A stretch of DNA of 64,000 bases from Escherichia phage WPEC6. Shown piece after piece: positions 29,179 through 30,504 of this stretch. The notes under the pieces are model-generated. The model searched no databases. It was not told where the DNA came from and saw only the letters and a list, made by a program, of their open reading frames with translations. Both the position numbers and the translations under genes were made by a program. Within the stretch, counting starts at the first letter, position 1; the number at the start of each line of letters is the position of its first letter. The stretch lies in the sequence record PV763039.1; one strand, given 5' to 3'.

Positions 29179-29664
29179 TTAAAGTTTATAAATAGTCACA
29201 TCGTGACCAGCTTTTACTAAAGTTTCTTTGATCATGACTTCAATGATAGCCCAATTACCTCCGGCACGCCCTGCACCTATCATAGGTAGACCAATCTTAT
29301 GTGCTGGTTGATCTCCTTTATCGTAATTGTGTAAGTCCATTGCCATAGCTGCAAGAGCATCATACAGCGCATCATAATCTAGTTGACGACCTTTACTATT
29401 ATATCCATAACGATACTGTCCATAAAGGTTGTATACCATAGGATTAGGATAATCTTCTGGTTCTCCTAAACTAAAAGAACCAAGCTTTTTCTGGTTTCCT
29501 GCTCCTGTAGCTAAATCTGCTTCGTATGCATATGGAAACGCATATTTTATTTGTGGGGCAATACCTGCCCCCATATTACACATACAATTACAACAATGAG
29601 CAATAACAGTTACTTCACCTGCTTTAGCGGCATCAATAAGATTACCTGTTTTCATTTTAAGCAT
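29179..29664 (-). CDS. Macro-domain protein (ADP-ribose binding/processing)
   Basis: 161-aa ORF; NCMCNMGAGIA and IGLPMIGAGRAGG resemble the two Gly-rich ADP-ribose binding loops of macro domains. Confidence 0.5.
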   Translation of the reverse strand: MLKMKTGNLIDAAKAGEVTVIAHCCNCMCNMGAGIAPQIKYAFPYAYEADLATGAGNQKKLGSFSLGEPEDYPNPMVYNLYGQYRYGYNSKGRQLDYDALYDALAAMAMDLHNYDKGDQPAHKIGLPMIGAGRAGGNWAIIEVMIKETLVKAGHDVTIYKL

Positions 29665-29676
29665 TTTAGATCCTTA

Positions 29677-30504
29677 TTACAGAATGTGTTGTTTTGTGTA
29701 ACGATCCAAGAACTCAAAGTTTTCAGCATACTTTGCAATTCGGTTGTAACCTTCTCCCAAACATCCGAAGAAAAGCTGCTCTACATAGTAGTGTGGCAAT
29801 TGGCTAAGAATGATTTTGAAGTCTTCATGATTTTGGCCCATAAGATACTTAATAGGACGAACAAGACACTGTGCATCACGTTCTTCATTAATCATTTTAA
29901 CAAATGCTTCTGGTGTATTAATATAGTTAAAATTCAGTTTAGCTTCGGTATCTGCTTGATTACCTTCGTATTTTGCAAAATACAAGAAGTAAACATCATT
30001 TTTAACTTGATTCTCATCAAGAATCTCAATCAGTTTGTCTTCATGAGTTCCAGTAATATTTACATCATCAATGAACACAAGCTTCTTATCGCCCCAGAAT
30101 TCTTTGTTGCAGTAGAATGTATCCCCATCAATAAGTTTCTTACGACTAGCTTTGTCCAAGAAACCATAATCGTTGATATAGCTAACTTTACGATGAATAA
30201 TATCCAGTTCTGCTGAACGACCTTGATCATATTGTGATTGCAACATATTAAAGTAATTAATAAAATGATCTGTCATCATTGTTGCAGCATTATGCACATG
30301 GTTGTAAGGAGAAGGAATGATAACAAATTGTTCTCCAATATGTTTCATTGCCACTTGAGCAAAAAACTGAAGTGCCAATTCTTTACCCATACGACGCGCA
30401 GCCTGGTTACTACCAAATTTCAATTTTGAATAGTCTTTGATATCAAAAGTAGCAGTTTCCAGGTCATCAAATTTATTTGCAAAAATTTGAGTTTGATTAC
30501 GCAT
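29677..30504 (-). CDS. Type I phosphoribosyltransferase (PRTase) domain protein
   Basis: 275-aa ORF with PRPP-binding motif KLVFIDDVNITGTHEDKL. Confidence 0.6.
   Translation of the reverse strand: MRNQTQIFANKFDDLETATFDIKDYSKLKFGSNQAARRMGKELALQFFAQVAMKHIGEQFVIIPSPYNHVHNAATMMTDHFINYFNMLQSQYDQGRSAELDIIHRKVSYINDYGFLDKASRKKLIDGDTFYCNKEFWGDKKLVFIDDVNITGTHEDKLIEILDENQVKNDVYFLYFAKYEGNQADTEAKLNFNYINTPEAFVKMINEERDAQCLVRPIKYLMGQNHEDFKIILSQLPHYYVEQLFFGCLGEGYNRIAKYAENFEFLDRYTKQHIL

Follow-up and report, generated by a model that had tools for sequence, protein, structure and literature searches.

Two candidate single-gene ADP-ribose counter-defences and a probably separate Ter-type phosphoribosyltransferase-HAD module in Escherichia phage WPEC6

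We analyzed a 64,000-nucleotide stretch of the Escherichia phage WPEC6 genome (PV763039.1; hereafter the window), with a focus on a macrodomain gene (macro; 29179..29664, minus strand), the phosphoribosyltransferase (PRTase) gene that precedes it (29677..30504, minus strand), the HAD-superfamily hydrolase gene that in turn precedes the PRTase gene (30497..31153, minus strand), and a NADAR gene (50025..50567, plus strand). An earlier note on this DNA had proposed that these genes could constitute one set that repairs ADP-ribosylated DNA or rebuilds nucleotide cofactors. Family matches confirm all four open reading frames (ORFs) and their domain calls. However, the reading that we consider probable is that macro and NADAR are two single-gene counter-defences of known kind, and that the PRTase and HAD proteins belong to an unrelated Ter module, rather than all of them forming one nicotinamide adenine dinucleotide (NAD)/ADP-ribose set. 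Thus the counter-defence part of the earlier proposal holds for macro and NADAR, whereas the PRTase-HAD pair separates from it.

Judging from nucleotide identity, the window derives from a virulent myophage of E. coli that is Phapecoctavirus-like and belongs to the subfamily Stephanstirmvirinae. This assignment is made because, over 27.5-32 kb, identity is 100% with the Escherichia phages WPEC1, WPEC2 and WPEC4 and 95-98% with many ~150 kb Phapecoctavirus genomes. The window is collinear with Bas60 (PaulScherrer, MZ501100), a BASEL phage of the genus Justusliebigvirus in the same subfamily. Specifically, Bas60 has the order TerC, macro (bas60_0070), PRTase (bas60_0071), HAD (bas60_0072), NrdG and NrdD, and on its other strand an FtsH-like gene, a gene for a large hypothetical protein and bas60_0111, annotated as "YbiA-like N-glycosidase".

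The macro gene codes for a 161 amino acid protein of the SCO6735/BT1257/T4 Tk.4 (AdfM) type, within the ALC1/TARG1/DarG-like macrodomain class, that is a predicted ADP-ribosyl glycohydrolase. Its score against the Pfam Macro model (21.6 bits) is marginally below the gathering score of 22, and among macrodomains in the PDB it matches SCO6735 (5e3b, E 2e-12; the best solved-structure match), BT1257 (2fg1, E 3e-8) and TARG1 (E 1.5e-3). It also matches phrog_335 (E 9e-53), a family that includes T4 Tk.4, to which macro is 39% identical (E 2e-21). Identity to bas60_0070 is 47%. In the alignment with SCO6735, residues His24, Asn27, Gln85, Gly126 and Gly128 correspond to H23, N26, Q83, G130 and G132 of macro; H23, N26, Q83 and G130 are invariant in 16 diverse homologues, and G132 is present in at least 90% of them. 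Note that SCO6735, the product of a bacterial gene induced by DNA damage, strips DNA of thymidine-linked ADP-ribose and confers protection from DarT, and that these same five residues were implicated in that protein by mutagenesis or conservation (PMC9411070).

Phage relatives of macro have been tied directly to defence. Tk.4 is AdfM, a T4 factor required for plating on DarTG2 hosts according to a transposon-sequencing preprint (bioRxiv 10.1101/2025.11.20.689424), and AdfM of PhiKZ is a further characterized phage macrodomain with the same anti-DarT2 role (PMC13309987). Macro has phrog_335 membership, single-domain size and the HxCNC, NLYxQ and IGAG motifs in common with Tk.4. There are also differences. 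PhiKZ AdfM, DarG and TARG1 have a catalytic Lys at a position where macro and Tk.4 have Gln, as does SCO6735, and Tk.4 is located in the T4 tk region whereas macro is located in a Ter array. From these sequence relationships, the activity that we predict as most likely is hydrolysis of thymidine-linked ADP-ribose on single-stranded DNA. In the proposed mechanism macro, as an orphan antitoxin-like protein of AdfM type, would bind ADP-ribose attached to DNA, most likely the thymidine-linked kind placed by DarT2-type toxins, and would cleave the glycosidic link so that ADP-ribose is freed and the phage DNA becomes replicable.

We also considered whether macro is itself a DarG antitoxin, since it matches DarG models with E values of 1.5e-9 and 2.7e-8. 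This identity was ruled out. Macro covers only positions 2-147 of the 338 positions of the DarG model NF048014, with 33.5 bits where the cut-off is 250, and it lacks the C-terminal DarT-binding domain; no DarT-like gene is present beside it among the ORFs of the window.

The NADAR gene is 20 kb from macro and PRTase, on the opposite strand and in a separate gene block. It codes for a stand-alone NADAR protein that matches PF08719 (E 1e-35; 123.8 bits against a threshold of 35.1), the solved structure 8bau from P. nicotianae (E 8e-15) and TIGR02464, the model for riboflavin-intermediate N-glycosidases (113.5 bits against a cut-off of 73.7). Residues E43, K50, K75, R79, W89, R93, E125 and D130 of 8bau correspond to E40, K47, K77, R81, W91, R95, E127 and D132, so that all of the ADP-ribose-contact and catalytic residues described for 8bau are present, with W133 replaced by Tyr135. 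Inspection of the active sites thus found these residues retained in NADAR, and the five residues implicated in SCO6735 retained in macro. NADAR proteins were classed by the residue at the E125 position, which is Glu in YbiA, Asp in the DarT1-linked BC4488 and His in T4 gp30.3. Since this residue is Glu127 in the WPEC6 protein, it falls in the Glu (YbiA) class, outside of the DarG1 (Asp) and T4 (His) groups.

The WPEC6 NADAR protein is a positional orthologue of Bas60 AdfN. It is 58% identical to bas60_0111 over 172 residues (E 6e-68) with the flanking genes kept, and the two share a stand-alone architecture of ~180 amino acids and the same catalytic residues. Upstream of NADAR, all on the plus strand, are a gene for an AAA/FtsH-like ATPase (46788-47927) and then one for a 486 amino acid protein with five CapR-homology repeats (48017-49477), and the order AAA/FtsH-like, CapR-like, NADAR is the same in Bas60. 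We equate bas60_0111 with AdfN on the report of one NADAR type for Bas60-62 (PMC11825919), our own NADAR scan having covered Bas60 outside bases 1-50000. Bas60 AdfN is sufficient by itself, with no further phage factor, to neutralize DarT1 (Johannesman et al., Nat Commun 2025, PMC11825919), and it restored plating to three DarTG1-sensitive phages and to none that are restricted by DarTG2 (PMC11825919). The two proteins differ in that they come from a Justusliebigvirus and a Phapecoctavirus-like phage, respectively, and in their C-terminal ~15 residues. By this homology we predict that the WPEC6 protein removes guanine-linked ADP-ribose and would rescue from DarT1; as an AdfN-type enzyme it would take off the modification placed by DarT1-type toxins. 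Macro and NADAR would each act alone as a single-gene counter-defence. The idea that the two repair ADP-ribosylated DNA is therefore supported by their kinship to SCO6735, T4 AdfM and Bas60 AdfN, at the level of a prediction for WPEC6.

A different picture emerges for the PRTase. This protein is a ComF-like type I phosphoribosyltransferase of the PRTase_3 family (PF15610, E 2e-41) with a C-terminal helical extension, and it is 65% identical to bas60_0071. Its phosphoribosyl pyrophosphate (PRPP) loop, VFIDDVNITGTHE, is invariant, and the structural model predicts a type I PRTase fold (ComF/HGPRT-like) followed by a family-specific C-terminal helical bundle. Our literature search for characterization of PRTase_3/PF15610 returned nothing relevant. 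The HAD protein is an obligate upstream partner of PRTase_3 with D-x-W-x-T as its motif I; Pfam support for the HAD assignment is weak, and HAD subfamily IA models (TIGR02252, E 2e-8) and PDB 2om6 (E 8e-5) match. The HAD gene and the start of the PRTase gene overlap by 8 nt. Labelling of the PRTase as a 'putative orotate phosphoribosyltransferase' or as an NAD-salvage enzyme was rejected in favour of a Ter-system PRTase_3-HAD pair.

We collected PRTase_3 homologues from a large protein database and from viral and genome contigs, and scanned 26 PRTase_3 loci with the window proteins and profile hidden Markov models. A HAD gene is directly upstream of PRTase_3 in every one of them (26/26), in phages and bacteria alike, the latter including metagenome-assembled genomes of Haliea, Akkermansiaceae and Fimbriiglobus. 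Motif I reads D-x-[W/Y]-x-T in 22/22 distinct HAD partners, and the motif alignment shows motifs II-IV to be present. When the loci outside of Stephanstirmvirinae are grouped into 13 independent lineages, two to four Ter genes are found within 10 kb of PRTase_3 in six, and a macro gene is found at this distance in two and is never adjacent. These counts are why we place the PRTase with the HAD and Ter proteins and not with macro. In the surveyed loci, adjacency of macro and PRTase_3 is confined to Stephanstirmvirinae. The bacterial locus from Haliea, which is one of the six, has the order TerC/DUF475-TerD-vWA-vWA-TerY-PP2C-(two ORFs lacking Pfam matches)-TerD-HAD-PRTase and is a canonical bacterial Ter/TerY-P context. 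In other large phages, HAD-PRTase_3 is found near genes for an RNA ligase, DUF2828/DUF7788 proteins and a weak 2H-SAK match (L004, 10967-13168; L002, 686-1834), which hints at a recurrent association of the pair with RNA-repair-type genes.

The window itself contains Ter genes, overlooked in the earlier note, on the PRTase strand and within 9 kb downstream. Specifically, these are genes for a TerC/Alx-family integral membrane protein (27891..28865; PF03741, E 4e-40; TIGR03718, 318 bits against a cut-off of 246), a TelA (toxic anion resistance) family protein (24566..25678; PF05816, E 3e-33), a vWA-TerF-like protein (22178..22972; PF10138, E 9e-38) and a TerD-domain protein (21065..21667; PF02342, E 1.5e-28). 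All of them are on the minus strand, so that PRTase_3 and HAD share one strand with TerC, TerD, vWA-TerF and TelA, as expected of a Ter system. The full bacterial ter operon also includes ATP-grasp, C-C lyase, TerB and further PRTase genes. In the ORFs scanned across the 20-39.6 kb part of the window, no Pfam matches to these additional components were obtained. The Ter set of the window is thus an abbreviated phage-type version. It differs from other Ter systems in having lineage-specific inserts (macro, a 73 amino acid membrane protein and a conserved 201 amino acid protein, p201) and in its location, a virulent myophage genome of ~150 kb instead of a jumbo phage or plasmid.

A Ter system with PRTase and HAD has been described in jumbo phage ME3 and "certain other related smaller tailed phages" (Iyer et al. 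2021, PMC7824862), and phage Ter clusters were noted for phiKp34 as well (PMC8386662). The pair occurs in jumbo phages and in a bacterial Ter/TerY-PP2C locus. A 'nucleoside-like metabolite' arm of Ter systems was, as PMC7824862 relates it, the proposal of Anantharaman, Iyer and Aravind (2012). Under this proposal the WPEC6 PRTase and the translationally coupled HAD would be the small-molecule arm of a phage Ter system to which TerC/Alx, TelA, vWA-TerF and TerD also belong. We predict that the PRTase couples a base-like acceptor with PRPP and that the HAD converts the phosphoribosyl product into a nucleoside-like metabolite, which may work alongside the membrane-associated Ter proteins and could serve superinfection exclusion or stress tolerance.

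Several observations weigh against the favoured reading. The anti-DarT roles of macro and NADAR are carried over by analogy from experiments on close relatives. SCO6735 Lys34, a DNA-contact residue, is Ala33 in macro and its Lys89 position is Gly87; basic R85 and K91 are nearby, so that macro may still bind DNA. Macrodomains of the SCO6735 type also remove modifications from proteins, and the physiological substrate of macro could differ accordingly. T4 Tk.4 carries the annotation 'A1pp phosphatase motif' and has long been labelled an ADP-ribose-1''-phosphate phosphatase. In regards to NADAR, one study found that YbiA and the T4 NADAR protein hydrolyze guanine-linked ADP-ribose in vitro and do not rescue from DarT1 in cells (PMC11125620). 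In regards to the Ter module, no Ter gene is found within 10 kb of PRTase_3-HAD in 7 of the 13 lineages, and canonical HAD phosphatases (DxDxT) have an Asp+2 general acid that the HAD partners lack, which makes the phosphatase step insecure. From their dehalogenase/REG-2-like motif I, the HADs paired with PRTase_3 may not be the ordinary phosphomonoesterases that the Ter model assumes. Finally, macro is in a hairpin-bracketed array with PRTase, HAD and TerC with gaps of 12 nt, and this placement is kept in the sister genus of Bas60 despite only 47% macro identity. This shared array and its conservation make a functional tie between macro and Ter possible.

The earlier proposal of one pathway, in which macro and NADAR free ADP-ribose from DNA or immune signals and PRTase and HAD recycle ribose-phosphate or nicotinamide into cofactors, gains some force from the tight same-strand packing of macro, PRTase and HAD in an order kept in Bas60. 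It also gains from the company that the macro family keeps elsewhere. Among the best 80 of 442 viral contigs encoding this family, genes within 8 kb include NAMPT (40), PRPP-synthetase-like (37), NAPRTase (36), Sir2 (30), Nudix/NMNAT-like (27) and homologues of the window NADAR (22), with many contigs being near-duplicates so that these counts exceed the number of independent lineages. However, a PRTase_3/HAD/Ter context is found in just 5 of the same 80 loci, all from Stephanstirmvirinae, and the constant partners of PRTase_3 are HAD and Ter proteins rather than NAD enzymes. The PRTase_3 fold is of type I and ComF/HGPRT-like, not of the NAMPT/NAPRTase type. The window ORFs gave no match (E<=1) to NAMPT, NAPRTase, PRPP-synthetase-like or Nudix/NMNAT queries, nor was a Sir2 homologue, an adenylyltransferase or an Adps-like gene found in the window; PnuC and NadR were not specifically searched. 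Moreover, Bas60 (L116) has a PRPP-synthetase-like and nicotinamide-PRTase pair by its tRNA cluster (43141-45839), NARP1-like and in addition to PRTase_3-HAD, as well as a sirtuin (7000-7812), and the presence of this dedicated pair argues that PRTase_3-HAD is not the device by which the lineage rebuilds NAD+. Rebuilding of nucleotide cofactors by PRTase and HAD is therefore not supported, given an invariant Ter-type pair in a window without NAD-salvage genes, and we regard the one-pathway proposal as improbable. WPEC6 resembles the phage NAD+ reconstitution pathways NARP1, NARP2 and NARP3 in its predicted PRPP-dependent chemistry, and these systems are often beside the macro family and NADAR in other phages. 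It differs from them in fold class, PRTase_3 being unlike NAMPT-type enzymes, and in gene content, since the sets summarized in PMC13464706 are Adps plus Namat, Nampt plus Nmnat, or PnuC plus NadR, and homologues of the Adps-type, Namat-type, NAMPT and Nudix/NMNAT queries were not found in the window.

Two further explanations assign macro to soluble substrates. In one, the Stephanstirmvirinae macro protein would have been recruited into the Ter small-molecule pathway, where instead of acting on DNA it would bind or trim an intermediate of PRTase_3/HAD that is a ribose-phosphate or resembles ADP-ribose, as its position between PRTase and TerC in one bracketed unit conserved across two genera might suggest. 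Macrodomains are indeed known to act on small derivatives of ADP-ribose, among them ADPR-1''-phosphate and O-acetyl-ADPR (PMC7824862). However, macro adjoins PRTase_3 in 0 of the 13 other lineages, bacterial Ter loci included, and its catalytic residues match the DNA-active SCO6735 type. The family is also found in unrelated surroundings, being in NAD islands, adjoining RNA ligase 2 and an exonuclease in BIS47-like Klebsiella phages, and in the tk region of T4. These varied contexts indicate that macro is a mobile single-gene cassette, and recruitment seems to us very unlikely. The other explanation invokes RNA-end repair, with macro as an ADP-ribose-1''-phosphate phosphatase that follows 2'-phosphotransfer of the Tpt1/KptA or sirtuin type, and NADAR as a YbiA-like N-glycosidase whose targets would be small metabolites, riboflavin intermediates for example; DarT marks would be the target of neither. 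It draws on the 'A1pp' label of Tk.4, on the RNA ligase 2 neighbourhood in BIS47-like phages and on the Glu (YbiA) class of NADAR with its score above the TIGR02464 cut-off; soluble substrates are also favoured for viral macro and NADAR proteins by Iyer et al. (PMC9503650). We give it a slim chance, given direct genetic and biochemical anti-DarT evidence for Bas60 AdfN and for the AdfM proteins of T4 and PhiKZ, and given that no RNA ligase or Tpt1 gene adjoins macro or NADAR in the window. A broader arrangement is likewise unlikely, namely that macro, and perhaps p201, is wired into the Stephanstirmvirinae Ter operon, with PRTase_3, HAD and macro making or editing a ribose-containing molecule that controls a TerD/TerC/TelA/vWA membrane complex. 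If true, the phage would encode a small-molecule pathway of hitherto undefined chemistry that serves superinfection exclusion or counter-defence.

The favoured reading, of two independent counter-defences beside a Ter module, provides probable functions for two 'hypothetical' genes in ~70 Phapecoctavirus-like genomes, an anti-DarTG2 role for macro and an anti-DarTG1 role for NADAR. This is relevant to selecting E. coli phages for therapy where the hosts carry DarTG. The phage Ter PRTase-HAD module has already been described, and the main interest is in the chemistry of the pair. Being collinear with the window, Bas60 is a tractable system for defining the PRTase-HAD product and the role of Ter in virulent phages.

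The remainder of the array contains additional genes, all on the minus strand. The 73 amino acid predicted membrane protein is encoded between macro and TerC (28945..29166; phrog_16065) and co-occurs with the cluster solely in Stephanstirmvirinae-like loci. A gene for a SprT-like metalloprotease-domain protein (25675..26265; PF10263, E 4e-9) overlaps the start of TelA, and a SprT-like gene is likewise near PRTase_3 in locus L006. Terminator-like hairpins were located just 3' of the TerC stop codon (27867..27884) and upstream of NrdD (34337..34357), and these two elements, which come from a pattern scan only, flank the array NrdD-NrdG-p201-HAD-PRTase-macro-(73 amino acid membrane protein)-TerC. 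A search of the whole window for Rfam families, including the yybP-ykoY riboswitch upstream of Alx-like TerC, gave no match.

The p201 gene (31155..31760) is packed against the HAD gene, and its product has no Pfam family. Invariant motifs (HxHxT, RxKxE and ExHxK) fall on its predicted strands, and it matches the PADLOC 'AbiEi' models (E 8e-13). Its modelled fold matches only uncharacterized viral proteins, one of them encoded by jumbo phage ME3 and several by giant viruses. The gene for a distant homologue (L112, 8001-8534) immediately precedes an anti-CBASS gene, Acb1, and is separated by 4 kb from a NADAR gene. We suggest that p201 may be another anti-defence enzyme.

In regards to annotation, EF1-1 and Bas60 were used as guides. 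WPEC2 (PV691511.1) was dropped because it is collinear with the window only over ~25.5-42.5 kb, differing at ~1-25500 and 42500-64000. Outside of the shared part, where the window has the Ter genes and the plus-strand early block, a tRNA cluster and the terminase/portal genes abut in WPEC2, which suggests that one of the two sequences was rearranged or has an assembly problem. The ~3 kb 3' of NADAR (50600-53800) contains only ORFs of at most 113 amino acids, without a tRNA or Rfam match, and a tRNA search across 50-64 kb of the window gave none; in the equivalent region of Bas60 only very small genes are annotated. Finally, two conserved proteins of 448 and 184 amino acids encoded upstream of NrdD (34363-36260, minus strand) are without a Pfam match, and the 'ribonucleotide reductase' and 'tRNA synthetase' labels that they carry in relatives are probably misannotations.

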